From Pseudomonadota bacterium (lineage in GTDB: Bacteria; Pseudomonadota; Alphaproteobacteria; Rhizobiales; Xanthobacteraceae): a DNA stretch of 64,000 nt. Shown in pieces: positions 45,192 to 61,481 of this stretch. The stretch spans positions 2,732-66,731 of the forward strand of contig JAZJYY010000061.1 in NCBI GenBank assembly GCA_040390145.1. The letters run 5' to 3'. Made by a program: the position numbers and the translations under genes. A model generated the notes under the pieces. The model ran no database searches and was not told the origin of the DNA. It saw only the letters and a list, made by a program, of their open reading frames with translations. Numbering within the stretch: the first letter of the stretch is position 1; every line of letters begins with the position of its first letter.

Positions 45192-45316
45192 GCAGTTTCT
45201 CCCTGAAGGCGGCTTCGCCGCGCTGTTTTCTCGAGGGGCAGTTTACAGCCTGCGTCCGGCGCGACAATCGGCTATCGCCCCGACGGCCCCGGGCCAATCG
45301 ACCGGTCCGAAATCCC

Positions 45317-46423
45317 TCAGGAAACGCTGACGGTCTCGCGGGGGTCAACCGGACGGACCGAACGTTCATCGACCAGATAATTGGTCAGCAGTGCGCCGGC
45401 CCACATGGCGGTGAGCGCCACCCAGGATGTCAGGGCAAAGATCGCCCCGCCCGTGACGCCGGCGCCGACGGCACAGCCGCCGGCCAGCATGCCGCCAAAC
45501 CCCATCAGCGCCGCGCCGAACAGATAGCGGCCCATGCTCGGCCCGTCCTGAAAGCCCTGGATCTTCCATTCGCCGGCCAGCAACGCGGCAAACAGCGAAC
45601 CGGCGAACACGCCGGGCACCAGGCCGATATCGAATCCCAGCTGCAGGGATGGAGAATTGATCAGCCCCATCAGCGTATCGGCCGACGGCCCGATGAAACT
45701 GATGCTCTTGACCTGAACGAGATTGAACGAGGATTGCGAAACGCGAAACGTGAACAGCCAGCCGGCCGCAACCGCAAGGCCGACACCGACGGCGCTGGCG
45801 CCGGCGACAACATCGACGCGGGCACGCCGCGCCAGCCACAGCGCGCCGCCGAGCCCGAGCATGCCGAGCAACAGGCCCGTCACTGCGCCGGCATCCACCA
45901 GTGCGAGCAGGCTGCGCGAGGGGCCGCCCTGCACGGTCCAGAGTTCAGACAGCGTTTCCCGAAGCGGCGCCAGCACCCCTCGCAGCGATGCCTGGCCGAC
46001 GATGGTGAGGACGAGCCCGGAAATCAGGGCCCGGAGATTCCCGGTCGCCGACAGAACCAGCAGCCGGCTGGCGCAGCCGCGCGCCAGGATCATGCCGGCG
46101 CCGAACATCAAGCCCCCGATCAGGCTGCCGGAAAGACTGCCGCGCGCGGCGAGCTGGCGGGCGCCGCCGACGTCCAGCCAGCCGAAGGCGATGAGGGCAT
46201 TGGTGGCGGCAACGGCAGCGGAAAACACCAGCAGCCAGATCGCGAATTTCGAGCTGAACCGTCCATGGGAGAATTCGATCACGGCGGATCGCAGGCAGAA
46301 TTTGCTCGCCTGCGCACAGGCGCCGAACAGCATTCCGATCAGCAATCCGCCTGCGGCAAGAACCACCGCATCGCCCGCCAGATCAATCAGCCATTGCAGA
46401 GACACGCCGTTCGCGCCTTTCAT
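45317..46423 (-). CDS. YeeE/YedE sulfur-compound transporter
   Basis: SKFCLR, LARGCASR, LAGGCAVG conserved Cys motifs; start may be GTG 46405. Confidence 0.88.
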   Translation of the reverse strand: MKGANGVSLQWLIDLAGDAVVLAAGGLLIGMLFGACAQASKFCLRSAVIEFSHGRFSSKFAIWLLVFSAAVAATNALIAFGWLDVGGARQLAARGSLSGSLIGGLMFGAGMILARGCASRLLVLSATGNLRALISGLVLTIVGQASLRGVLAPLRETLSELWTVQGGPSRSLLALVDAGAVTGLLLGMLGLGGALWLARRARVDVVAGASAVGVGLAVAAGWLFTFRVSQSSFNLVQVKSISFIGPSADTLMGLINSPSLQLGFDIGLVPGVFAGSLFAALLAGEWKIQGFQDGPSMGRYLFGAALMGFGGMLAGGCAVGAGVTGGAIFALTSWVALTAMWAGALLTNYLVDERSVRPVDPRETVSVS

Positions 46424-46549
46424 CGGCCGGTGACGATTCCGCCATGGGTAGAATGGCGAAAAGTCACCCGCCGGTGATTGATTTGGCGCAACAAGACGCC
46501 TTGTTGCTTCGGATCCCGGCTGGACCGTTACCCGCCCGCCGGGTCGACC

Positions 46550-47890
46550 TCAGGGGCAGATATAGCCGGTGCCGCTCGGATTCCTGAAGCAGCCGACCGA
46601 TTCCGGCAGCAGGTGTTTGGGCAGCCACAGCACCACTTCGGGGAAGAAGATGCAGAACGCGATGGCGGAAAAGAACACGAAATAGATCGGCAGCGACGCG
46701 AACATCGCCTTGCCGAAACGCACGCCGACGAATTTCGACGCCATCAGCAGCGCCAGCCCGTAAGGCGGCGTGATCAGCCCGAACGCCAGCGTAACGATGA
46801 TCACCACGCCCATATGCACGGGATTGATGTCCGTGGTCTGGGTGAGGTCGGTAATGATCGGCATGAAGATGATGATGGCAGGTATCGCGTCGATGAAATC
46901 GCCGACGATGACGAACAGCACGACCAGCAGCAGCATGATCATGAACGGGTCGCCGCCGGCGGCCGACGAGATCCAGCCCGACACCACCGCCGGACCGCGC
47001 AGATAGGCCAGCATCCAGCCGAACACCGAGGCGGCGCCGATGGTGATCAGCGGAATCGAATAGAGCAGTCCGGTCAGCGCCAGGTCCCTCGGCAGATGCC
47101 TGTAATGGCGGGGGTTGAGCAGCGGAATGGCGACGAAGACGATATAGGCCACGGCAATGATACCGGCCTCTGTCGGCGTGAACTGCCCGCCGAGAATGCC
47201 GCCCATGATGATCAGCGGGATCATCAGCGGGATGGCCGCCTCCTTGGTCGCGGTCGCGAACCTGCCGAACGTCGCCCGCTTGTGCTTCAATCCGACCGGC
47301 CCGAAGAAATGGCTGTAGATCATCAGCCCGATGCCCACGAACACGCCGGGCGCCACGCCGCCGAGGAACAGTCCGCCGATCGAGACATTGCCGGTCGCGC
47401 CGTACACCACGGCCATGATGCTGGGCGGAATGAGGTTGGCCATCGTCGAGGCCGAGGCGATCAGGGCGGCGGTGAAGGCGAGGTCATAGCCTTCGCGCTT
47501 CATCTCCGGCGCCAGCGTGCGCGACAGGATGGCCACGTCGGCAGCGGACGAGCCGGAAATGCCGGCGAAGAACATGCTGAAGATCGTCACCACCTGGGCG
47601 AGGCCGCCGCGGAAATGCCCGACCATGGTCTGCGACAGCGTGATCATGCGGGACGTGACGTTGGCCGAGGTCATGAGATCGCCGACCAGCAGGAAGAACG
47701 GCACCGCCAGCAGGGCTTCGGTGTCCATGCCGTTGAACAGCTGCGCCATCATCGAGGCGAGGCTGACCGGGGTGAACGACGTCACCACCAGCACCGACGC
47801 GATCAGCGCAAAGGCCACCGGCACGCCCATATAGCCGAGAAACAGGAACAGAAATCCCATCAGGAAGATGAGGCCGCCATTGGTGGTCAC
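46550..47890 (-). CDS. dctM: TRAP transporter large permease
   Basis: LLAVPFFLL.G, GISGSSAAD, IPPSI, TPTEA, ITPPYG. Confidence 0.92.
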   Translation of the reverse strand: MTTNGGLIFLMGFLFLFLGYMGVPVAFALIASVLVVTSFTPVSLASMMAQLFNGMDTEALLAVPFFLLVGDLMTSANVTSRMITLSQTMVGHFRGGLAQVVTIFSMFFAGISGSSAADVAILSRTLAPEMKREGYDLAFTAALIASASTMANLIPPSIMAVVYGATGNVSIGGLFLGGVAPGVFVGIGLMIYSHFFGPVGLKHKRATFGRFATATKEAAIPLMIPLIIMGGILGGQFTPTEAGIIAVAYIVFVAIPLLNPRHYRHLPRDLALTGLLYSIPLITIGAASVFGWMLAYLRGPAVVSGWISSAAGGDPFMIMLLLVVLFVIVGDFIDAIPAIIIFMPIITDLTQTTDINPVHMGVVIIVTLAFGLITPPYGLALLMASKFVGVRFGKAMFASLPIYFVFFSAIAFCIFFPEVVLWLPKHLLPESVGCFRNPSGTGYICP

Positions 47891-48435
47891 AGCGCTTTCC
47901 TCTTCTCGTCGGCGTGCGTCGTGCCGACAAAGCCGTGTTTCCAGCCGTTGACGATCTGCTCGATGATGAAAATGGAGACCAGCACGCCGCAGAGCGGAAT
48001 GGCCGCATAAAGGCTCGACAGCGGCGTCATCGACGGCATGCGCAGGCTTTTGAAGCCGTCGAGAAAATTCAGGTAGCCGAAATAGATCATGCAGAACGCG
48101 ACACCGAGCACGACCAGCCGGTTGAACATTTCGAAGAACAGCCGCTTGTTGCCGGTCAGCGATTCCGCCAGCACCGCGAGATAGAGGTGGTCGTTGCGCC
48201 GCGTCGCCGCGCCGACGCCGATGAAGATGCCGTAGATGAAGAAGGTCATGGTCGCCTCCTGGAGCCAGAGCCAGGGATGACCGATCGTGCGGGTGACGAT
48301 GTCGCACATCACCAGGACGGAAAACCCTGTAATGGCGACGCCGCACAGGATCATCAGGACCTGTTCGAGCCAGTCGAGCGCGCGCCACTTCAGGTACCGC
48401 TGCTCTTCCAGCACGAGGCTATTGAAACCACGCAT
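47887..48435 (-). CDS. dctQ: TRAP transporter small permease
   Basis: Four TMs; W.QE...F...IFIG...A.RRNDHL. Confidence 0.88.
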   Translation of the reverse strand: MRGFNSLVLEEQRYLKWRALDWLEQVLMILCGVAITGFSVLVMCDIVTRTIGHPWLWLQEATMTFFIYGIFIGVGAATRRNDHLYLAVLAESLTGNKRLFFEMFNRLVVLGVAFCMIYFGYLNFLDGFKSLRMPSMTPLSSLYAAIPLCGVLVSIFIIEQIVNGWKHGFVGTTHADEKRKAL

Positions 48436-48466
48436 GATCTTTTTCCGAATTCGGATTGCGGAGCGG

Positions 48467-48498
48467 CGACGCGGGGAGCGCTCGGGCTCCCCGCGTCG
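48467..48498. terminator. Strong hairpin between dctP and dctQ (mRNA stabiliser or partial terminator)
   Basis: cgacgcggggagc...gctccccgcgtcg 13-bp stem. Confidence 0.55.
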
Positions 48499-48511
48499 TG
48501 AAACGCGCTGC

Positions 48512-49519
48512 CTATTTGACGTTGCGCACCAGGCCGAGGACCTTCACGGCGTTCGGCCCGAGGTCGGAGGCCAGCTTGTCCTGGATCGGCTTGCTGATCT
48601 CCGCAAAGCCCGACTTGTCGACGGTCTTGACGACCTTGACGCCGATCTTCTCGAGTTTTGCCTGCGCTTCGTGTTCGAGCTTGAAGGCCGCGGCCGGCTC
48701 GTTGCGGCTGACCTCGTCGGCGGCCGCCTGCACCCATTTCTTCTGCTCGTCCGTGAGCGTGACCCACACCTTGTCGCTGACGAACAGCGCGGCATTGTTG
48801 GCCTCGTGTTCGGTGAGCGAGAGCACCGGCGCGGGTTCGTAGTGCTTGTTGACGAGGTAGTTGTTGATGCCGTTTTCGGCCATGTCGACGACGCCGGTCT
48901 GCAGCGAGGTGTAGACCTCGCCGAACGGCATGTGCACGACCTGGGCGCCGTAGGCCGGGAACAGCGTGTCTTCGGTGACGGTGGCCTGCACGCGAACCTT
49001 GACGCCCTTGATGTCGGCGACCTTCTCGACCGCCTTCTTGCCGTACATGTGCCGCAAGCCCTGCGATCCCAGCCCCAGCATGTGCGCGCCCTTCATCTTG
49101 GCCGCGTACAATTCCTTCATCGCCGCGATTACGGCGGGATCGCCCAGCACCTTGATGGCGTGGGCTTCGTCGCGAAAGATGAAGTGAAGCGAGAATACGC
49201 CGGACTCCGGCTGCGCGGTCGAGGCGTTGGCGGTGGACAGCATCACGAAGTCGATGTCGCCGGTCTGCACCTTTTGCAGGGTCTGCGCCTCGGTGCCGAG
49301 CTGGGCGCCGGGATACTGATTGATCGAGAGCGTGCCCTTGCTGAGTTCGCCCAGCTTCTTGTTGAACATTTCGGCGCCGATTCCGTAGCCGCTGTTCTTG
49401 GGCTGGTCGTAGGCGAACGAGAACTCGCGCTTCTGCGCCAGCGCGGCGGTCGAGGCCATCGCCAGCGCGGCGCCGAGCAGAATGCCGCGCGCGAGCGGCA
49501 GATACCGTGAAACGGACAT
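48512..49519 (-). CDS. dctP: TRAP substrate-binding protein
   Basis: Signal peptide; YPGAQLG; GVKVRV; MPFGEVYTSLQTGVVD.AEN. Confidence 0.92.
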   Translation of the reverse strand: MSVSRYLPLARGILLGAALAMASTAALAQKREFSFAYDQPKNSGYGIGAEMFNKKLGELSKGTLSINQYPGAQLGTEAQTLQKVQTGDIDFVMLSTANASTAQPESGVFSLHFIFRDEAHAIKVLGDPAVIAAMKELYAAKMKGAHMLGLGSQGLRHMYGKKAVEKVADIKGVKVRVQATVTEDTLFPAYGAQVVHMPFGEVYTSLQTGVVDMAENGINNYLVNKHYEPAPVLSLTEHEANNAALFVSDKVWVTLTDEQKKWVQAAADEVSRNEPAAAFKLEHEAQAKLEKIGVKVVKTVDKSGFAEISKPIQDKLASDLGPNAVKVLGLVRNVK

Positions 49520-49630
49520 TGAAATTCCTCCCCTGCTGTCGCCGCTTTTGCGGACTGATGGTTCGCCGGGCATGGGCCCGGCGGCGGCAGTATCAACCGC
49601 CCCCGCGCTGTACACAAGATAGTTTTTTAG

Positions 49631-49642
49631 ATTGTATACAAT
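49631..49642. promoter_or_regulatory. GntR/FadR-type operator
   Basis: Perfect palindrome ATTGTATACAAT between divergent dctP and gntR; weaker copy tgtacacaa at 49609. Confidence 0.65.
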
Positions 49643-49666
49643 TTGGAGCAATGGCAAGTTGCAGCG

Positions 49667-50419
49667 ATGGCGAGCGCTAAACCTTCCAGAAAGCCGCCGC
49701 TCCGCAAGGACGCGACCAACGGCATGTCCGCGGCGATGGCCGAGCCGCAGGCGCGCGAGCCGTCGATCGCCGACCTGATCGTGCGAAAACTGGAGGAAGA
49801 CATCGTGCTGGGGAGGCGGCACCCGCGCGAACGGCTGGTCGAACAAGATCTTTGCGCGGATTTCGATACCCACCGCGGCGATGTCCGGCTCGCGCTGTTC
49901 GAGCTGGAAAAGATGGGCATCGTCGAACGGATCCCGAATCGCGGCGCGATCGTGCGCGATCTGAAGCCGCGCGAGGTCGAGGAGATCTACGACGTGCGCG
50001 AGGAGCTCGAGGTCATGGCGGTGCGCATCCTGCCGTTTCCGGTGCCGGACGCGGACCTCGCCAGGCTGGAGGCGATCCAGCACGCGCACGGCAAGGCGGT
50101 CGACGCCGCCGACCTGCTGGCGGTGTTCCACAGCAACGTGCAATTCCATCGCGCGCTGTTCGGCCTGTGCGGCAACACCAGCCTGATCGAAACCATCGAA
50201 TACCTGGCGCAGAAGGTCTCCGGCATCCGATCCTATGCGCACGCCAAGCCGGAGGCGCTGAACGATTCCCGCCGCGATCATATCGCCATGATCAAGGCGC
50301 TGCGGAACTCGCGCCGCGACGACCTGATCAAGCTGACGCGCCGCCACCTCAAGCCCGCGGTGCGGGCCTATATCGATGCCTACCGGCGCCGCTTCGGTGA
50401 CGGCGGCTCCGGAGCCTGA
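49667..50419 (+). CDS. GntR (FCD) family regulator
   Basis: PRERLVEQDL..HRGDVRLAL..LE..G; EIYDVREELE; FH; DH. Confidence 0.9.
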   Translation: MASAKPSRKPPLRKDATNGMSAAMAEPQAREPSIADLIVRKLEEDIVLGRRHPRERLVEQDLCADFDTHRGDVRLALFELEKMGIVERIPNRGAIVRDLKPREVEEIYDVREELEVMAVRILPFPVPDADLARLEAIQHAHGKAVDAADLLAVFHSNVQFHRALFGLCGNTSLIETIEYLAQKVSGIRSYAHAKPEALNDSRRDHIAMIKALRNSRRDDLIKLTRRHLKPAVRAYIDAYRRRFGDGGSGA

Positions 50420-50453
50420 ACGCACCACGCTTCGTGCGCGGCCCTGACCGGTT

Positions 50454-50756: not shown

Positions 50757-52646
50757 TTATCGCATGGCTGCCGGGCCGGCGGTGGCGAGGATGGCGGCGA
50801 TCGCCGCATCGCCTTCCGCTTCCCGCGCCAAAATGGCCTCGCGGGCCCAGAGATAGGACGCCTCGAAAATCTCGCTATGGCGTTCGAATTCGGTGACGCC
50901 AATGTCGGGCGAAAACGGCGGCCGCATCACATGATCGTGCGGCGCGGCCGGCAGCGTATCATAGCGCTGGTGCGCCACCAGGCTTCGCCACAGCACGCTG
51001 ACCGCGCTCGGCGCCGCCGGCAGCAGCTTCTTGCGGAACGGCGTCAGCATCGCCAAAGCGAGCTCGAACCGCCCCGGCAGTTCGGCGTAGTCGACATCGA
51101 ACCTTTCCTCCGCGGGGTCGCCGAAATGCACCACCAGGTTGGGACCGCTCTTCAGCTGATGCATCTGCGCCAGCGGAACATTTTCGATCAGGCAGCCATC
51201 GACCAGCATCGCGCCATCAGGCGTGTAGAACGGCGGCAACAGACCGGGGATCGCGCTCGAGGCGCGCACCGCGTGCCAGAGCAGCCCCGAGCGGATCAAT
51301 TCGAGATTATGGGTGGAAAGATTGGTGGCGACCGCCGCGAACGGCCGCCAGCAATCCTCGATCCGGCACTGGTCGCCATATTGCTCGGCCAGCGCGCGGT
51401 CGAACGCCTTGTGATCCAGCAGGGCATAGCGCGGCCAGGTCGGCCGCCGGAAGCTGCGGCTCTTGACGAAGATCTCGTGGGTGCCGCGCTCCAGATGATC
51501 GGCCTCGTGGTTCTTGGCGAAACCCGCCGCCATCGCCGAGCCGACGCTGGTGCCGACAAAGATGTCGAACACGACGCCGCGCTCGCGGAACGCGCGGTAG
51601 ATGCCGACATGCGCCGATCCGAAGGCGCCGCCGCCGGCGGCGACGAAGCCGAGCGCGCGGCCGGACATGAACCGGATCAGGCTGTCGATATCGCCCTGAT
51701 CCTCCAGCGCGACATGGTGATTCATAAAGCACGGCAGGCGGGCGAGCCAGGCCGCGGTGCCGCTGACCTCGCCGCTGCGCCGCGCGTGAATCCGCACCAG
51801 ACGGCGCGCCGAGGCGGGATGAATCCTGCAGGCGAAGGTCTCGACCTCGGTCAGCACACCGGCGACCGGCGCCCTGCCCTGGGTGACGAACACCACCATG
51901 TCGGCCTGGCGAATGGCCTTGCGGGTCCAGATCGAGTCTTCGCGGTCGCCGAGATAGACCACCAGCGGTGCGGTCTGCTCGATCTTGTTGAGCCAGTCGG
52001 CGACTTCAGGCGAATCCAGCGCCCGGCCGGGAAACATTGCTTCGAGACGGGCGGGATCGACGATCTCGGCGTCGGTCGCCGCCAGACCGAGGCGCAGGCG
52101 GCGATCGAAAGTTTCCGGTACAGGCTCATATCCGCCCTGGATCAGCGCCACGGTTCGCGCCGTCGGCGACGCGCGGACCGGGGTGAGGCGCGCCGTCTCC
52201 CGGGCGAAGCGCAGCGCCAGCGCCGCGAGCACCGCCTCGACGATTTCAGGGGTGTGTGCGGCCAGCTCGTGATAGGCGGCGCGCGTCAGCGCCAGCACGC
52301 TGGTGTCGCGGATCGCAATCACATCGGCGGTGCGCGGCACGTTGGCGAAGAAGCCGATTTCACCGACCAGTTCGCCGGCGCGAAGCTCGGCGATCGGCGC
52401 CGGATCGCCTGATTTGCGGACCGCGAGCGCGCCATGCAGCACGATGAACAGGGCGTCCGAAGGCTCGCCCTGCGCCACCAGCAGCTGGCCGCGCACCAGG
52501 TCCTGGCGGACCATCGCGCGAACAGCCTTCCGCCGCTGTTCGGAACTGAGCGTTCGAAACAGCGCGAAATCGTCGGACACGTTTCCCCACGCGAATGTCG
52601 AGTTCAGCCCATCCATTGGCCCTACCCGGTTCTGATTGGGGGCCAA
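50757..52646 (-). CDS. cNMP-binding + patatin-like phospholipase (NTE family)
   Basis: GELVGE..PRTADV cNMP domain; GGGAFG, GTSVG, DGC. Confidence 0.9.
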   Translation of the reverse strand: MAPNQNRVGPMDGLNSTFAWGNVSDDFALFRTLSSEQRRKAVRAMVRQDLVRGQLLVAQGEPSDALFIVLHGALAVRKSGDPAPIAELRAGELVGEIGFFANVPRTADVIAIRDTSVLALTRAAYHELAAHTPEIVEAVLAALALRFARETARLTPVRASPTARTVALIQGGYEPVPETFDRRLRLGLAATDAEIVDPARLEAMFPGRALDSPEVADWLNKIEQTAPLVVYLGDREDSIWTRKAIRQADMVVFVTQGRAPVAGVLTEVETFACRIHPASARRLVRIHARRSGEVSGTAAWLARLPCFMNHHVALEDQGDIDSLIRFMSGRALGFVAAGGGAFGSAHVGIYRAFRERGVVFDIFVGTSVGSAMAAGFAKNHEADHLERGTHEIFVKSRSFRRPTWPRYALLDHKAFDRALAEQYGDQCRIEDCWRPFAAVATNLSTHNLELIRSGLLWHAVRASSAIPGLLPPFYTPDGAMLVDGCLIENVPLAQMHQLKSGPNLVVHFGDPAEERFDVDYAELPGRFELALAMLTPFRKKLLPAAPSAVSVLWRSLVAHQRYDTLPAAPHDHVMRPPFSPDIGVTEFERHSEIFEASYLWAREAILAREAEGDAAIAAILATAGPAAMR

Positions 52647-52706: not shown

Positions 52707-53180
52707 CTATGCCGGGGGCGTCGTCAGCAGCTGGACGAACTGATCGTCGCCGATTTCGGTCTGGCTGATCAGAACACTGCAGCGAAGATGATCGGTCAGA
52801 TAGCCGCCGACCGACCCGAACCACCATCGCGCCAGCGGCCCGGAGGGTCGGTGGCCAACCACGACGAGATTGGCTCCGATCTCTTCCGCGACGGCGGCGA
52901 TCTGCTGTGCGGGGGCTCCCATGCCGAGCCGTGCCGTCGGCGAAAATCCCGCGGCCCTGAGCCGCTCCACGCCTTCGGCCAAAATCGCCTTGTAGGCCGA
53001 GATCTGTTCGTCGATCGAGATCCCGACGCCTCCCTCCAGGGTCGCAAGCGCGGGGGCGTTTTCCACGACCGCCAGCAGCAAGACCTCGGCGCCGCACAAT
53101 TGCGCGAGCTTGGCACCCTCGCGCAACGCGCGCCGTCCCTCGACCGAGCCGTCATAGGCGAGCAGAACTTTCTTGTACAT
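52707..53180 (-). CDS. Universal stress protein
   Basis: MYKKVLLAYDGS, LVVVGH, GSV. Confidence 0.9.
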   Translation of the reverse strand: MYKKVLLAYDGSVEGRRALREGAKLAQLCGAEVLLLAVVENAPALATLEGGVGISIDEQISAYKAILAEGVERLRAAGFSPTARLGMGAPAQQIAAVAEEIGANLVVVGHRPSGPLARWWFGSVGGYLTDHLRCSVLISQTEIGDDQFVQLLTTPPA

Positions 53181-53500
53181 GAGGCGTCCCCCGATGCTCA
53201 TGAAGCCGAGCCCGGGAAGGCTAGCACTAATCGACCGGACAGGAAGCCGACTTTGATCCGAAGAGCAGTGATCGGAAAGGTCTCCAGCGTCCCGGGCCCC
53301 CGCGGCGGATCGCTGCAGGCAGCAATTTTGACGCCGAGGTCAGTGGCCGTCGACCGCCCATGCGGTGGGGAGCGCGACTGACCCCGATGGTCCTCGGCCT
53401 GGGTCCGATTTCCGCCAGCATCGCAGGCGAGCGGCGTAGCGCACTTACGGTTGCGCAGTACCAAGCCCATCGTGACTTCCCTCACATTTACATTGTCACA

Positions 53501-54418
53501 TCAGACCTGCCGCAGATCGTAACCAAGTCGCGGGAAATGCACGACGACGTCGCCGAGCCTCGGATCGTTCCGGCGCAGGGCAATTTCATCAGCATCGACC
53601 AGAACAAGCTCTCCTTCGACTGGGTCTCGGCCATAATCATCGGCGCGGATACGCACATGACTGCCAAGCGGCGGATCCTCATCGAAGGGGTTTGAGCTGC
53701 GCGGCGTTGCCGGTTGCGCAACAGCAGCGACGTCCAGGGCATCCGCGGCGGTTATAGGCGATGAGGTGCCATGACCAAAGGCGCGCATTCGCGCCATCCA
53801 GTCAGCGATGCGGGGATAAGGGGTAAGCTCGTGTGCCAGGCGTTGGCTGCGCGCCGTCATGAACCAGAGCGGATGGTAGACAGCGAAATCGGCCACGGTG
53901 ACTTGCGGCCCGGCAATCCAGCCATGGCCGCTCGCCAGCAGCGACTCGACAGTGGGAAGCTGCGCGCGGACAAACGGTGCATTTCGCTTGGCCGCGCGCT
54001 GCACTGTCTCAGCACTGGGAAGCGGCAGATCGCGCATGCGCGAACGATCGGCCTGCAGTTCGGGAGGAAGCAGGTCCGAGTTGGTGCCTGAGACGTAGAG
54101 CGACATCGGGCGGAAAAACTGGTGCTCGGCCCAGTATGCGATCATGTCCGCGAGCGCGGTCGTGCCGTCCGGATAAAGTGAAGGCTGCGGCTTTCGCCGA
54201 TCGAGTTCGCGCAGGATCAGCCGCGTGTCGCAAAAGATGTCCGCTCCGACCTGTAGAACCGGCGTGCGACGATAGCCGCCGGTCAAAGGCGCCAAGTCAG
54301 GTTTGGGGGCAACCGGGGGGATGATCACGCCGCGCCATGCGAGCCCTTTGTACCCCAACGCGAGCCGCGCTTTCTCGGCATAGTTCGAGAAATCGTAGTG
54401 ATGCAGGATTAGGTCCAT
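53501..54418 (-). CDS. Glutathione S-transferase family protein
   Basis: LHHY..SNYAEK.RL, GGYRRTPVLQVGAD.FCDT, HFPRLGY. Confidence 0.88.
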   Translation of the reverse strand: MDLILHHYDFSNYAEKARLALGYKGLAWRGVIIPPVAPKPDLAPLTGGYRRTPVLQVGADIFCDTRLILRELDRRKPQPSLYPDGTTALADMIAYWAEHQFFRPMSLYVSGTNSDLLPPELQADRSRMRDLPLPSAETVQRAAKRNAPFVRAQLPTVESLLASGHGWIAGPQVTVADFAVYHPLWFMTARSQRLAHELTPYPRIADWMARMRAFGHGTSSPITAADALDVAAVAQPATPRSSNPFDEDPPLGSHVRIRADDYGRDPVEGELVLVDADEIALRRNDPRLGDVVVHFPRLGYDLRQV

Positions 54419-54728
54419 CGGGGACGCCGGCTCACGTTATTGCACAAACGATGCGAGTTCATTTGTATGTATGCGAAAGTTTGGACCACCGTTCATCGAC
54501 CGCTGCCAAACATAGGCATAGATGTTGTTGACTACGAGAGTAACCCCCGATTCTCCGAGCGCCTGATCTTGTTCGAGTTCGTGCTAGCCCGCCAGCTATC
54601 TCTACCAATGATTCCCGACCCTCGCGCAAGCCCTCAGTTGCAGCTTGCCGAGGAATCCAAGGTGCTCCAGGCCCGCCGGCGGTTAAAACTGACCGGCACA
54701 GTCCCGGCACCCTCGGCACGTGCTTTTC

Positions 54729-54804
54729 TGGCGCACCCGACACGATTCGAACGTGTCACCTATGCCTGAGGCGGGCACGCCCCTCCAACAGAGCCTACCC
54801 CAGC
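54729..54804 (-). pseudogene. Inverted degenerate copy of tRNA-Arg (pseudo-tRNA / att-like)
   Basis: 3' 28 bp identical to the tRNA, 37/39 over the 3' half; D-arm region recognisable; 5' acceptor strand destroyed. Confidence 0.85.
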
Positions 54805-54819
54805 CCCTTTCAGGGCCGG

Positions 54820-54848
54820 TTGCCCCTGCCCCGCCAATCGGCTAAATG
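54820..54848 (+). promoter_or_regulatory. sigma70-like promoter of tRNA-Arg
   Basis: TTGCCC-N17-TAAATG. Confidence 0.5.
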
Positions 54849-54857
54849 GACCGTCAC

Positions 54858-54934
54858 GCACCCGTAGCTCAGCTGGATAGAGCGTTGCCCTCCGAAGGCA
54901 AAGGTCACACGTTCGAATCGTGTCGGGTGCGCCA
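54858..54934 (+). tRNA. tRNA-Arg(CCG)
   Basis: 77-nt cloverleaf; anticodon arm ttgcc-ctCCGaa-ggcaa; TTCGAAT T-loop; encoded CCA. Confidence 0.97.
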
Positions 54935-55015
54935 TCTCACCACTAAACGCGGGGACCAAGCGCGTCCCCTTTCCGTTATTCTGAAGTCCATGAGCTAATG
55001 GATTTCGGTAGATCG

Positions 55016-55116
55016 GGTCGCGCCGGCGATCGGCCGGCTAATGTTCGCGAAGCGACCGCCGTTCTCCTTATTCCAGGTCACACCTTGGGCGGGACGTACT
55101 CGCTGGACTCGACCAT
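55016..55116 (-). pseudogene. yghU: 5' remnant of YghU-type glutathione-dependent disulfide oxidoreductase
   Basis: GAGGAG RBS; MVESSEYVPPKV-(1-bp loss)[21 protein letters not shown], then similarity ends. Confidence 0.8.
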
Positions 55117-55347
55117 GCTCGATCTCCTCGGGCTGGGGCGGTGGCTCAGCTGCAGGCTGGTGGACCAAGGCAGGGCCTGGGTAGATAGATCTCCGCTTTT
55201 CGGACGGCCCGACCTTGCTGGGTTGGTCGTCTACATGCGCCCTGACGTAGTGAACTGCTGAGGCTGCGTGTTCCCTGGGGTTGCGTTCGTGGACGGTCGC
55301 CTGCGCTCCAGGCGGCCATTGTGCTACCTCAAGATTTGAGACGTCCA

Positions 55348-55378
55348 GACCTTCGGCGGTTTAGGGCGCCGAAGGTCC
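55348..55378 (-). terminator. Hairpin after the peroxiredoxin-like gene
   Basis: gaccttcggcg...cgccgaaggtc. Confidence 0.5.
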
Positions 55379-55400
55379 GATTGGAGCGGCGTACGAGAAT

Positions 55401-56108
55401 TCAGGCGACCTGTCGGCGCGCCAGTTTCTCCAGAACCGGGAAGACGGCCGAGGGCTCCGGCCGACGGGTATAGTCGGCGTTCACTTCGGCGTAGGCGATC
55501 ACTCGGTCCCGAGCGATGACATAGCGGGCGCTCATCGGGAGGGTCCAGCTTTCCTCGCCGTTAAACTGCGGCAGGTCGGCGCCGAGCGTCTTGTGGGCCA
55601 CGCGCAGATAGTCCGGCAACGTCCAGCGCACGTTGAACCGGGCAGCGACTTCGCCGCCATGGTCGCTCAGGATCGGGAAGCCGAGCCCGTTCTGGCGTTG
55701 CGATTTTCGGCTGTTGGGCGCCAACTGCTGAGAGATCGCGACCAGAGTCGCACCACGCGCCTCGATCTCCGAGCGAGCTTCTTCGAGCGCGGTCAGTTCG
55801 TAGTTGCAGTAAGGACACCAGACGCCGCGATAGAACGTGACGACGAGCGGGCCTCCGGCGAGGAGCGCTTTTGAAGAGACCGAATTGCCGTCGGAGTCGG
55901 GCAGGGTGAACTCCGGCGCGACGTCCCCGACCTTCAGTGCGCGGGCCGGAGCGCCCGACGCGATCAGTTCCTCGACGGAGCGATGCAGGGCTTTGACGGC
56001 CGCCGGGGGTGCGAGGCGTGTATCGAATTCGACTTTGAACGCATCGAGCTTGCCTTGCAGCGGCAGACCGGATTGCGCGATCTTGGTGAAGGTTTCCTGG
56101 AATGTCAT
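55401..56108 (-). CDS. Peroxiredoxin-like (AhpC/TSA) protein
   Basis: APEFTLPD, FYRGVWCPYC, DYTRRPEP. Confidence 0.88.
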   Translation of the reverse strand: MTFQETFTKIAQSGLPLQGKLDAFKVEFDTRLAPPAAVKALHRSVEELIASGAPARALKVGDVAPEFTLPDSDGNSVSSKALLAGGPLVVTFYRGVWCPYCNYELTALEEARSEIEARGATLVAISQQLAPNSRKSQRQNGLGFPILSDHGGEVAARFNVRWTLPDYLRVAHKTLGADLPQFNGEESWTLPMSARYVIARDRVIAYAEVNADYTRRPEPSAVFPVLEKLARRQVA

Positions 56109-56204
56109 CAAGCTTCTCCGTATCGGCGCAGCACTATCGCTGGCGTGACGCCCCCAATGAGCCATTCTGAAGCATTGCAGAAGGACAGCTGAAGCCATAT
56201 GACT

Positions 56205-56221
56205 TATTCAAAAGTGGAATA
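56205..56221. promoter_or_regulatory. LysR T-N11-A box
   Basis: TATTC-AAAAGTG-GAATA between divergent genes. Confidence 0.55.
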
Positions 56222-56234
56222 GATGGCGGGTCGA

Positions 56235-57122
56235 ATGGATCGATTGCATGCGATGAGCGTCTTTGTCCGCGTCGTTGAGACCGGTTCCTTCTCGGCCGCC
56301 GCGCGCGATTTGCAGATAGGCCAACCCACTGTGTCGAAATTGGTCGCGGCGATGGAGCAACGTCTCCAGGTGCGGCTTCTGGTCCGCTCAACGCGCCAGC
56401 TTCACCCGACTGAAGCCGGCCAGGCCTTCTACGAGCGGGCGCGCCGCACCCTCGCAGAAGCCGATGAGGCAGAGACTGCCGCGCGCGGATTAGGCAAGGG
56501 GCTCGATGGACGGCTGCGCGTTTGTGCGTCCGTCACCTTCGCGAGACTGCACATTGTTCCAAGGATCGGCGGTTTCTTGGACGCGCATCCAAATCTTCGT
56601 GTCGATTTCGTCTTGGACGATCGCTTCGTTGATTTAATGGGGGAGAATATCGACGTGGCCCTGCGTGCGGGGGAGCTGTCGGATTCGAGCCTGACCGCGC
56701 GAAAACTTGCCACTTGCGAGCGATATGTAGTTGCGAGCCCGGCGTACCTCGCGCGGAGGGGCATTCCGTCCACTCCAAGTGAACTCCACGACCACACCGC
56801 GCTTGTCTACACTCAAGGGCTGGTCGCGGAGGAATGGCGCTTTCGTCGCGCGACGACGGATACGTCCGTGCGCATCCCCACTCGGCTGTCTTTCAGCGCC
56901 GCCGAGGGCGTTCGTGAGGCGGTAATCGCTGGCCTTGGCCTCGCGATCAGTTCGCGGTGGATGATGGAACCAGAGCTTGCGAGCGGGAGCGTGGTCCCGG
57001 TGCTTACCGACTGGAATCTTCCCAACGCAGACTTGTGGGCCCTCTTTCCGACCGGGAGACTGCCGACGGCGAAGGCGCGCGCGTTCGTCAGTTGGTTCGA
57101 AGAGACCTTCTCGAAGAATTAG
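56235..57122 (+). CDS. LysR family regulator (CrgA-like)
   Basis: MDRL..M..FVRVVETGSFSAAAR...QPTVSK; RSTR; DVALR.G. Confidence 0.93.
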   Translation: MDRLHAMSVFVRVVETGSFSAAARDLQIGQPTVSKLVAAMEQRLQVRLLVRSTRQLHPTEAGQAFYERARRTLAEADEAETAARGLGKGLDGRLRVCASVTFARLHIVPRIGGFLDAHPNLRVDFVLDDRFVDLMGENIDVALRAGELSDSSLTARKLATCERYVVASPAYLARRGIPSTPSELHDHTALVYTQGLVAEEWRFRRATTDTSVRIPTRLSFSAAEGVREAVIAGLGLAISSRWMMEPELASGSVVPVLTDWNLPNADLWALFPTGRLPTAKARAFVSWFEETFSKN

Positions 57123-57429
57123 CAGTCAACTTATCTGCCGAGCGCCGTCGATGAACTCCTGCCAACGACCGTTGGCCAAGTACCACCATTCTTTCGTTTG
57201 AAGGGCGCCACTGAAATTCGAGGTCACGCCCATCACCATCCAGGACAGGATCGGCTTCGCGCCACAGGACTACCGGCGGGTCGCGCATCAGCTGTCGAGA
57301 CAGTAACCGATCAGGCGCCGTGCAGGCCGCGAATCTGCTATCCTGCCGCTGCACGGACGATGCATCTCACGCGGACCGGTCCGCCGGCGCAGCACGTCTG
57401 ACGTTCCACCCAGAGAAAGCGGGCCTGAC

Positions 57430-57627
57430 ATGAGCGAGCGAATCGAGACGCTGAAGAAGGCGCGTGAGCGCATGGCCGACGACCGCGACGCCTTCGCCAA
57501 AACGCTGGCCGCGCCGTTCGATCGCGACAAGGCGGAGCGGGCGCGGCTCAAATTCATCGAGACCCAGGTCCTGATCGACGCCATCGATCGCGCCATCGCC
57601 GGCGAGCAGGCGAGGCCGGCGGCCTGA
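57430..57627 (+). CDS. Small hypothetical coiled-coil protein
   Basis: 65 aa with host-like codon usage. Confidence 0.6.
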   Translation: MSERIETLKKARERMADDRDAFAKTLAAPFDRDKAERARLKFIETQVLIDAIDRAIAGEQARPAA

Positions 57628-59936: not shown

Positions 59937-60923
59937 TCACTCGACCTTGAGGCCGGCGGCCTTCACCACCTTCTCCCATTTCTCGGTTTCGGCCACGATC
60001 ATCTTGCCGAATGCTTCCGGCGTGCCGGGCAGCGGCGCGCCGCCGAGGTCGATCAGCTTGGCCTTGATCGCGGGCTCGGCCAGCACCTCGTTGATCTCCT
60101 TGTTCAGCTTCGCGATGATCTCCGGTGGCGTCTTCTTCGGCGCCCCCATGCCGAACAGCGCGCTCGCCTCGTAACCCGGAACGGTATCGGCCAGAACCGG
60201 CACGTCGGGCAACAGCGCCGAACGCTCCGTCGTGGTCACCGCCAGCGCGCGCAGGGAACCGGCGCGGATGTGCTGCAGAATCGAGGGCATGTTGTCGAAG
60301 ATCAGCTGCACCTGACCGCCGAGCATGTCGGTGATGGCAGGTGCGGCGCCGCGGTAGGGAACATGCTGCATCTTGATGCCCGTCATCATCATGAACATCT
60401 CGCCGGACAGATGCACCGAGGTGCCGTTGCCGGACGACGCCATGTTCACCTTGCTGGGGTCGGCCTTCACATAGGTAATGAACTCGGCCACCGTCTTGGC
60501 CGGCACGTTATTGCTGACCGTCATGACATTGGGAACACGGTTGAACGCCGCGACCGGCGCGATGTCGCGAACGACATTGAATTTCAGGTTGGTGTAGAGC
60601 GTGGCGTTGACGTAATTGGCCGGATTGACCAGCAGCACGGTGTAGCCATCCGGCTCGGCATTGACCACCGATTCGGTGGCGATGTTGTTGCCGGCGCCGG
60701 GCTTGTTTTCGATCACGAATTGCTGGCCGAGCCGTTCCGACAGCCGCTGCCCGATCAACCGCGCAATGATATCGGTGGCGCCGCCGGGCGGATAGCCGAC
60801 CACCCATTTCACCGGCCGGGTCGGATAATTCTGCGCCGCGGCGCTGCCGATCGAAGCGATGGCCGAAATGCCGATCGAAATACAAGTGGCGATCAGACAA
60901 ATGGCGGTGCGACGTGAGGTCAT
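59937..60923 (-). CDS. Bug/TctC family substrate-binding protein
   Basis: YPTRPV..VVGYPPGGATD; ENKPGAG; HVPYRG. Confidence 0.92.
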   Translation of the reverse strand: MTSRRTAICLIATCISIGISAIASIGSAAAQNYPTRPVKWVVGYPPGGATDIIARLIGQRLSERLGQQFVIENKPGAGNNIATESVVNAEPDGYTVLLVNPANYVNATLYTNLKFNVVRDIAPVAAFNRVPNVMTVSNNVPAKTVAEFITYVKADPSKVNMASSGNGTSVHLSGEMFMMMTGIKMQHVPYRGAAPAITDMLGGQVQLIFDNMPSILQHIRAGSLRALAVTTTERSALLPDVPVLADTVPGYEASALFGMGAPKKTPPEIIAKLNKEINEVLAEPAIKAKLIDLGGAPLPGTPEAFGKMIVAETEKWEKVVKAAGLKVE

Positions 60924-61061
60924 ACAGTTTTGCTCCCGGCGGCCGCGTCGTATCGCGCGGTCCGAACCTGTTGAATTGACAACGGGCCGCGTTGTAACAA
61001 ACAAAGCGGGTGACGGCCAGTGCGGCGGATCGCCCTGAAGACGCGACGAAAGGATAATGCC

Positions 61062-61481
61062 ATGGCTGTTATGGTGAACGCGCTCGATCACATCGTGATC
61101 AATGTCGCCGACGTCGCGCGTTCCGCCGAATGGTACCGGAAGATTCTCGGCATGGAGATCCAGGTGTTCAACCCGGGCCCGGGCAAGGCGCCGCGGACGA
61201 CGCTCAGGTTCGGGAAGCAGAAGATCAATGTGCGGCCGCGCGACGCCGACACGGTCGAGTGGTTCACCGCCGACCACGTCGCCGCCGGCAGCGACGATCT
61301 GTGCTTTCTCACCTCAAGCGCGCCGGACGAGGTGGTCGCGCATCTGAAGGCCCATGGCGTGGCGATCGAGGAAGGCCCGGTCGCCAAACAGGGCGCCCGC
61401 GGTACGCTGCGGAGCGTCTATTGCCGGGATCCCGACGGCAGCTTGATCGAGATTTCTTCGTATGAGGACGGTGTCCTGTAG
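61062..61481 (+). CDS. VOC/glyoxalase family protein
   Basis: LDHIVINV.D; GSDDLCF; SVYCRDPDG.LIEI. Confidence 0.88.
   Translation: MAVMVNALDHIVINVADVARSAEWYRKILGMEIQVFNPGPGKAPRTTLRFGKQKINVRPRDADTVEWFTADHVAAGSDDLCFLTSSAPDEVVAHLKAHGVAIEEGPVAKQGARGTLRSVYCRDPDGSLIEISSYEDGVL

Follow-up and report, generated by a model that had tools for sequence, protein, structure and literature searches.

A tRNA gene that stands back to back with an inverted and partly decayed copy of itself raises the question whether the pair works as a recombinational switch, whether it offers two attachment sites to mobile elements, or whether it is what an inserted element has left behind. We investigated such a pair, formed around a tRNA-Arg(CCG) gene, in a stretch of 64,000 nucleotides (the window) that belongs to a 6.0-Mb assembly in 192 contigs with 64% G+C, a two-piece tmRNA and a completeness of 88%. 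An earlier note had suggested either of the first two possibilities. Comparison with other genomes points instead to the third. With a probability of roughly 0.7, positions 54693-54934 form the end module, on the attR side, of a Bradyrhizobium and Nitrobacter island family that targets tRNA-Arg(CCG), preserved here as a frozen and immobile scar.

The tRNA gene, its inverted copy and the promoter

The functional tRNA-Arg(CCG) gene lies at 54858-54934 on the forward strand. It is called by ARAGORN, which finds no other CCG isoacceptor in the assembly, it scores 67.7 bits with the Rfam tRNA model, and it is 100% identical in 17 of 17 aligned genomes. A terminator-like hairpin follows 3' of it at 54951-54969 on the same strand, as placed by a consensus scan. 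The repeat search of the window pairs the 3' part of the gene (54886-54934) with an inverted arm at 54729-54777. The two arms are 49 nt long, lie 108 nt apart and are complementary at 44 of the 49 positions (90%). The inverted arm carries, on the reverse strand, the 3' strand of the anticodon stem, the T-arm, the 3' strand of the acceptor stem and the CCA. The exact reverse complementarity over 28 nt between 54729-54756 and the end of the tRNA, from which the earlier note had started, was confirmed at these coordinates. Similarity extends past the 49 nt, where the reverse strand aligns with tRNA positions 6-33, which correspond to the D-arm and the 5' strand of the anticodon stem. The copy had been described as decaying through a recognisable D-arm, and this decay is real: in local alignment the 47 nt on the 5' side of the conserved part match tRNA positions 6-33 better than 99.5% of shuffled sequences (p=0.0045). 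The decayed 5' part of the pseudo-tRNA (54778-54812, reverse strand) lacks the 5' strand of the acceptor stem, and the anticodon loop of the copy is mutated in the window, reading CGCCTCA.

A BLAST search of the whole assembly finds the 3' half of the tRNA in two copies only, the gene itself and the inverted copy (39 nt, 94.9% identity, E 8.5e-11), and no further 3' fragment. Neither of the tRNA models used detects a tRNA on the reverse strand. ARAGORN calls only the forward-strand gene in the window, and in 16 related loci it likewise reports the forward-strand tRNA and never the copy. The Rfam tRNA model gives no match on the reverse-strand copy even at E<=10, and in the Rfam scan of 54000-55600 the real tRNA is the sole genuine match, the rest being chance. 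Elsewhere in the assembly ARAGORN makes three odd calls (C166, C175 and C182), namely a 'tRNA-???' of 94 nt whose anticodon has 4 bases, a tRNA-Phe(aaa) of 97 nt and another 'tRNA-???' whose anticodon has 2 bases.

The putative promoter of the tRNA gene (54813-54857, forward strand) had been placed between the two copies, and this placement holds. The motif TTGCCC-N17-TAAATG is found at 54820-54848, between the gene and the inverted copy, with a -35 element TTGCCC at 54820-54825 and a -10 element TAAATG at 54843-54848. The -35 element and a CAATCGGCTAAATG block upstream of tRNA-Arg(CCG) are conserved throughout the genus, with or without the module described below, but a strict scan for the sigma-70 consensus passes over the motif. 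In other genomes the promoter region is part of a direct repeat of about 85 nt that borders islands. The -35 box together with the spacer (54820-54842, TTGCC-N7-GGCCAA) mimics the anticodon arm (TTGCC-CTCCGAA-GGCAA), a likeness that about 35 related loci share at the corresponding place. Several units of the tandem arrays discussed further below end at this mimic, so it could be a secondary att core. Judged by its resemblance to the anticodon arm, the -35 region might be a secondary att site.

A recurrent end module and its islands

The conserved unit is larger than the inverted pair. It comprises 242 nt (54693-54934), made up of a 36-nt flank, the inverted pseudo-tRNA, the promoter and the tRNA, and its left edge lies 36 nt to the left of the start given in the earlier note. 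The flank, which we call f (54693-54728, forward strand), has GGCAC three times in direct orientation, with starts at 54695, 54706 and 54715, a proposed cluster of integrase arm-type sites. We searched 200 genomes of the genus with 53190-54815 as the query, and the matches consisted of the inverted copy and the 36 nt past its CCA end. Among the 200 sampled Bradyrhizobium species at least 13 have the whole unit, and a single Nitrobacter MAG has it too. This tally, like the counts of 0 and 9 among 401 genomes given below, includes one unpublished genome (G016), which enters these counts only and carries no individual claim. Among the loci that bear the module are those of B. japonicum SZCCT0231 and of many Bradyrhizobium sp. 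MAGs. In six other genomes the whole of 54693-54934 aligns at 80-86%, and the homology ends sharply to the left of 54693 and to the right of the CCA of the tRNA. Across the genomes of about 185,000 species the pattern of flank and fragment is found essentially only in contigs of Bradyrhizobium or Nitrobacter type, the few others being without the tRNA fragment. The flank is absent from the plasmid and phage collections, in which only a tRNA-like match of 49-57 nt was found.

An alignment of 17 distinct modules describes how conservation is distributed within the unit. Mean pairwise identity over the 17 genomes is 0.35 in the left flank outside the module and rises to 0.80 in f and to 0.94 in the acceptor and T-arm part of the copy (its first 30 nt). 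It is 0.74 in the variable loop and the 3' part of the anticodon region of the copy, 0.52 in the 5' part of the copy, 0.74 in the promoter and 1.00 in the tRNA. The preferential maintenance of the 3' half of the copy, which had been proposed from the window, is thus borne out by the 17 genomes (94% against 52%). A reason for this maintenance may be constraint within an att arm, gene conversion from the adjacent tRNA, or both. The modules come in two types. In type a, found in the window, in Nitrobacter and in five further genomes (G213, G347, G404, G063 and G179), the 5' half is decayed but can still be recognised and the loop is mutated, and type b has an intact CCGAAGG that is abutted by unrelated sequence. 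Three other roles for the conserved parts were considered and rejected. A structured RNA in the 3' half of the copy and the flank is not supported by RNAalifold, which recovers only the T-arm from the 17 sequences, nor by the single-sequence z-score of +0.33. The flank is not a native tRNA trailer, as it is never found behind an intact tRNA. As an intrinsic terminator it matches weakly in the window, over 5 pairs, and most genomes have no T-run.

In nine genomes we find the module at the right end of an island. The order is the same in all of them: promoter and tRNA positions 1-39, the island, f, the inverted fragment, the promoter and the intact tRNA. The outermost neighbours belong to the host, with the left fragment adjoining the backbone at Usp and the tRNA's 3' end adjoining a gene like that at 57403 of the window. 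The islands measure 1.1 kb (G063), 1.2 kb (G141), 5.2 kb (G347), 7.2 kb (G082), 16.8 kb (G378), 22.6 kb (G166), 25 kb (G154), 29 kb (G213) and 30 kb (G404), and the end repeats, as measured in the four large ones, are 83-108 nt long and 93.5-100% identical. Because f and the inverted copy lie within these direct repeats, they were brought in by the island. The displaced partial tRNA copy consists of the promoter and positions 1-39/40, ends in ...CTCCGAAG and is followed by a conserved non-tRNA arm (CTGGACC...). Since the displaced left end consists of the promoter and positions 1-39, it is the gene's 5' half that these islands restore. The 5'-half junction is present in at least 17 of 400 genomes of the genus, and in the Nitrobacter locus the module is followed by the 5'-half junction, as expected for a tandem insertion.

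The content of the islands is varied. Their ORFs have a low GC3 (0.55-0.7), and a block of them reads as type-I R-M-like, judged by ORF sizes. Some islands encode a RepB/ParB protein and a large serine recombinase, others a tyrosine integrase of about 325 aa, and neither recombinase is common to all of them. The promoter copies at the two ends of an island are near-identical within a genome and track the host clade and not the module type, which implies gene conversion or crossover at the promoter end of the repeat. This behaviour of the promoter copies and the lack of a recombinase common to all islands count against reading the module as an island end, and so does one genome, G167, whose whole module is opposite in orientation to the displaced fragment. 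In the same genome a segment of 4.35 kb (L040 5474-9823) separates the displaced 5' half from the tRNA. By sequence, one part of its ORFs reads as a HipA-like kinase and another as an IS91-type fragment that includes a truncated XerC-like recombinase. This fragment was rejected as a candidate for the island integrase, since its sequence and its neighbour read as an IS91-type unit. Further fragments of promoter and 5' half, without an inverted copy, are found 0.2-5 kb upstream of the intact gene in G015 (C136:14167-14450), G031 (C1:2239277-2239530) and G020 (C10:110470-116017), one of them from a different family within the order. At tRNA-Arg(CCG), insertion with repair of the 5' half may therefore extend beyond the family of islands with the module.

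The window itself holds only part of this arrangement. On the reverse strand Pfam assigns, from left to right, a TRAP transporter with DctM and DctP components (46550-48388, a fused DctM-type gene, and 48512-50428), a patatin/cNMP-binding protein (50757-52646), a universal stress protein (Usp, 52707-53201), a GST-like protein with GST_N_3 and GST_C_2 (53501-54418), which is cargo or a neighbour of the remnant, an AhpC/TSA peroxiredoxin (55401-56198) and a TctC receptor (59937-61277). A divergent LysR regulator (56223-57122) lies on the forward strand. An empty site was found in contigs of a 90-95% relative from a groundwater metagenome (X3), which have the joints 53260>54819, where 1558 nt are skipped, and 54938>57429, with about 39 other letters at each joint. 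This empty site identifies 53261-54818, with the GST gene and the module, and 54939-57428, with the AhpC and LysR genes, as insertions. The remnant island DNA upstream of the module is thus 53261-54692, and the second islet (54939-57428, 2.5 kb) begins 4 nt past the CCA of the tRNA and has no att repeat left. The inserted DNA is missing from collinear relatives also by synteny. The end of the Usp gene (window 53062-53191) lies 98 nt from the tRNA promoter in G001, the patatin gene lies 100 nt from it in G010, and in G021 a homologue of 57406-57624 is found about 100 nt 3' of the tRNA. In 11 close relatives conservation is limited to the tRNA and about 40-55 nt upstream of it, and none of the 11 has an inverted copy within 1.5 kb of the tRNA. 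The inserted segments have a slightly lower G+C (57-64% vs 65-70%), and no att-like cores or fragments were found at the islet borders 53261 and 57428. An orthologue of the GST protein with 90% amino acid identity is encoded on the same side of the module array in Bradyrhizobium sp. E19 (L097), outside the array. A different indel is seen in the neighbourhood, where about 5.1 kb with the TRAP transporter (45282-50428) is missing from G010 and the genes flanking this segment are adjacent.

A displaced 5' fragment was found neither in the window nor in the whole assembly, so the island is not bracketed here as it is in the nine relatives. The earlier note had also proposed to look in this genome for an integrase that uses tRNA-Arg(CCG), and none dedicated to it was found: the assembly has only two PF00589 genes, located elsewhere on contigs C118 and C58, and the scanned ORFs of the 44-64 kb region include no recombinase. 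In view of the missing 5' fragment and integrase, the island status of the window segment is drawn from the homology of the module together with the empty-site comparison.

The related genomes suggest which recombinase could act at these sites. A module with the tyrosine integrase of about 325 aa occurs in 9 of 401 genomes of the genus. In 8 of the 9 it shares a contig with the displaced fragment, with the f-T2-tRNA module or with both, and in the four genomes with both ends mapped (G378, G166, G404 and G213) it lies between the island ends. In all nine its homology starts exactly at a palindromic core resembling an anticodon arm, AGAGCGTTGCC-N7-GGCAACG, the first 11 nt of which equal tRNA positions 21-31. 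This edge was seen in G378 (L056 from 14290), G166, G404, G213, G093, G275, G358 and G283. The core, with a different neighbour in every genome, looks like a hot spot for further, nested insertion, for example of a serine-recombinase island. What counts against such nesting is that in all nine genomes the DNA to the left of the core is unrelated sequence and not the tRNA 5' half. A GGCAC triplet spaced by 9-11 nt is found 100-155 nt from the core, just upstream of the integrase gene, in three genomes. In f the repeats are spaced by 11 and 9 nt and lie 52-76 nt from the anticodon loop of the copy, and the surrounding 6.5 kb contains only 12 GGCAC sites. As predicted for arm-type sites, the motif in f is repeated, phased, conserved and common to the other arm. 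No second copy of the flank exists from which gene conversion could draw, and yet it is conserved (80%); we therefore read it as a candidate group of arm-type sites; f would then be a cluster of such sites for an integrase.

These observations can be arranged into a probable history of the locus. The islands would recombine in the anticodon arm, with the displaced host fragments ending in ...CTCCGAAG. The att arm of the island would bring a promoter and tRNA positions 1 to about 39 and so repair the gene from its 5' side, which would leave the displaced promoter and 5' half at the far end of the island. Outside the promoter block this arm would carry the dead, reverse-oriented tRNA copy and then the three helically phased GGCAC repeats, which would be bound as arm-type sites by the tyrosine integrase of about 325 aa. 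In the window the island would have been reduced to about 1.4 kb, with the GST gene, and the module. With the far-end junction and the integrase lost, the structure would be a fixed scar, and the tRNA would still be expressed from the promoter that the module brought. How the module itself arose is less simple. We considered single-step origins (antiparallel integration, a flip of the promoter segment and aberrant excision) and none of them yields all the observed junctions. It is conceivable, though we hold it to be unlikely, that the copy and the flank are the fossil core, identity block and arm of an ancestral attP of the ordinary type, which restored the 3' half and became one of the rare 5'-restoring type through inversion beside a captured promoter and 5' half, or else that the mirror-image 3' half is a part of this attP that still works by binding protein. 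If either were true, the locus would reveal how an island family can change the end from which it mends its target gene.

Switch, second attachment site or local duplication

The main idea of the earlier note is that of an active invertible segment. A recombinase would turn over 54778-54885, with the promoter and the 5' half, between the two inverted 3' halves, so that the tRNA is rebuilt on the opposite strand and read-through takes a new direction. The geometry permits this flip, as inverted arms of 49 nt, 28 of them exact, surround the promoter and the 5' half, and in some other genomes the copy even retains an intact CCGAAGG core. For a switch, both orientations would be expected in populations or among relatives, but a pattern search for the flipped state, an intact tRNA from the D-stem to the CCA beside the flank, finds it in none of 401 genomes of the genus, and a single orientation, in which the intact gene lies distal to the flank, is seen in 17 of 17 aligned modules and in every further module-bearing locus that we inspected. 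We also checked the orientation on Logan contigs, which cannot show rare variants. Those of X1, the probable source sample, have the orientation of the window only and break inside the repeat, and in X2, an independent aquatic sample with about 96% identity, one contig spans 54380-54885 in the same orientation. No recombinase gene is nearby, the only two PF00589 genes being elsewhere in the assembly, and in the window the anticodon loop of the copy is mutated. Our conclusion is that the segment does not act as a switch in the window, and the probability that we leave to one is very small indeed. An inversion in the past, during the origin of the module, may nevertheless have taken place.

A double attachment site is the alternative. 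The copy and the flank would then be an attB of their own, with islands on the left entering its 3' half and those on the right using the real tRNA, and repeated integration would keep refreshing the 3' half and the flank. Tandem, direct arrays of fragment and flank, with units 1-4 kb apart, are indeed found at L083/L097 (up to six units), L090, L080, L084, L092, G199 and G048. One array unit starts exactly at CCGAAGG beside unrelated DNA, the outermost fragments have no flank, as expected for an original attR, the best-conserved block takes in everything between the T-loop and the far end of the flank, and in G123 and G024 ordinary 3' fragments border islands to the right of the real tRNA. 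The arrays can, however, also be explained by tandem accretion of islands that bear the module, and their left edges (T-loop, CCGAAGG or -35 box) fit either tandem accretion or independent att use. Moreover, the copy and the flank are island-borne, as they lie within the island direct repeats of nine genomes, no genome has an intact second tRNA at the place of the copy, and the flank is never seen behind the real tRNA or ordinary 3' fragments, nor on plasmids or phages. We therefore hold a double attachment site to be unlikely. The suggestion that each copy served as an integration site for the islet beside it survives in part: both flanks are insertions and the copy is at an island boundary, but the copy belongs to the end module of the island and is not an independent chromosomal attB. 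A neutral inverted duplication of the tRNA in an ancestor of the host, with the 3' half kept alike by nothing but gene conversion, appears quite improbable. It would explain why substitutions in the conserved half of the copy are scattered singletons and why its 5' part decays like a pseudogene, and the invariant real tRNA is a ready conversion donor only 108 nt away. Against it stand the single-copy flank, with a conservation of its own (80%) that ends abruptly on the outer side, the patchy occurrence of the module in about 7% of the sampled species, in two forms that do not follow the promoter type of the host, and its position between island direct repeats.

The richest of the arrays, in Bradyrhizobium sp. 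E19 (L083/L097, NZ_JAUSLT010000101.1), has up to six units of fragment and flank in direct orientation within about 10 kb. Its cargo ORFs look caspase-like and saccharopine-dehydrogenase-like when read from their sequences, and there is no integrase-like ORF between the units.

Known relatives of the system and its meaning for tRNA-Arg(CCG)

Islands that split a tRNA gene and restore its 5' half are already known. In the Islander collection those with a displaced 5' tDNA fragment are a minority, 159 vs 3760 (PMC4383910). They resemble the islands described here in that the tRNA is split in the anticodon arm and regenerated from sequence that the island brings, and in that they have direct-repeat ends, an internal tyrosine integrase and tandem accretion (PMC4383910). 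The island arm in Bradyrhizobium differs from this class by an additional inverted dead tRNA copy and a repeat-bearing flank, and the island of the window differs further in being a 1.4-kb remnant without integrase or displaced fragment. The Islander pipeline rejects inverted fragments as false positives (PMC4383910), and island-finding software would discard the end module because its fragment is inverted.

Other known systems share single features with the locus. The attP of lambda type (P1/P2, P'1-P'3) is similar in that three phased direct repeats are found 52-76 nt from an inverted-repeat core, here the anticodon arm of the copy, and in that the motif is repeated near the integrase-proximal core. 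The GGCAC motif and the integrase are unrelated in sequence to those of lambda, and an assignment to the P or the P' arm would be putative. The fimS/FimBE and Hin/hix switches likewise have a promoter bracketed by inverted repeats, but here there is no adjacent recombinase and no second orientation in 401 genomes or in contigs, and one of the repeat arms lies within a tRNA gene of essential type. The polypartite symbiosis ICEs of Bradyrhizobium and Mesorhizobium (PMC9174649) occur in the same genus, and tRNA-Arg is a known ICE site. Their head-to-head att sites cause inversions (PMC9174649), but these span hundreds of kb between distant att sites, whereas here the copies are 108 nt apart. The window contains no ICE genes.

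For the genome studied here the practical message is modest, as it has two small islets beside the tRNA, one with the GST gene and one with the peroxiredoxin and LysR genes, and neither is mobile any more. The locus also shows that inverted tRNA fragments beside live tRNA genes need not be switches. For the family the finding provides a clean and recurrent case of an uncommon class of islands, those that repair their tRNA target from the promoter side, and a complete island of 29 kb is available in the cultured B. japonicum SZCCT0231. In Bradyrhizobium tRNA-Arg(CCG) is a multi-layer hot spot of integration, with ordinary 3'-fragment islands downstream of the gene and the 5'-restoring family upstream of it.
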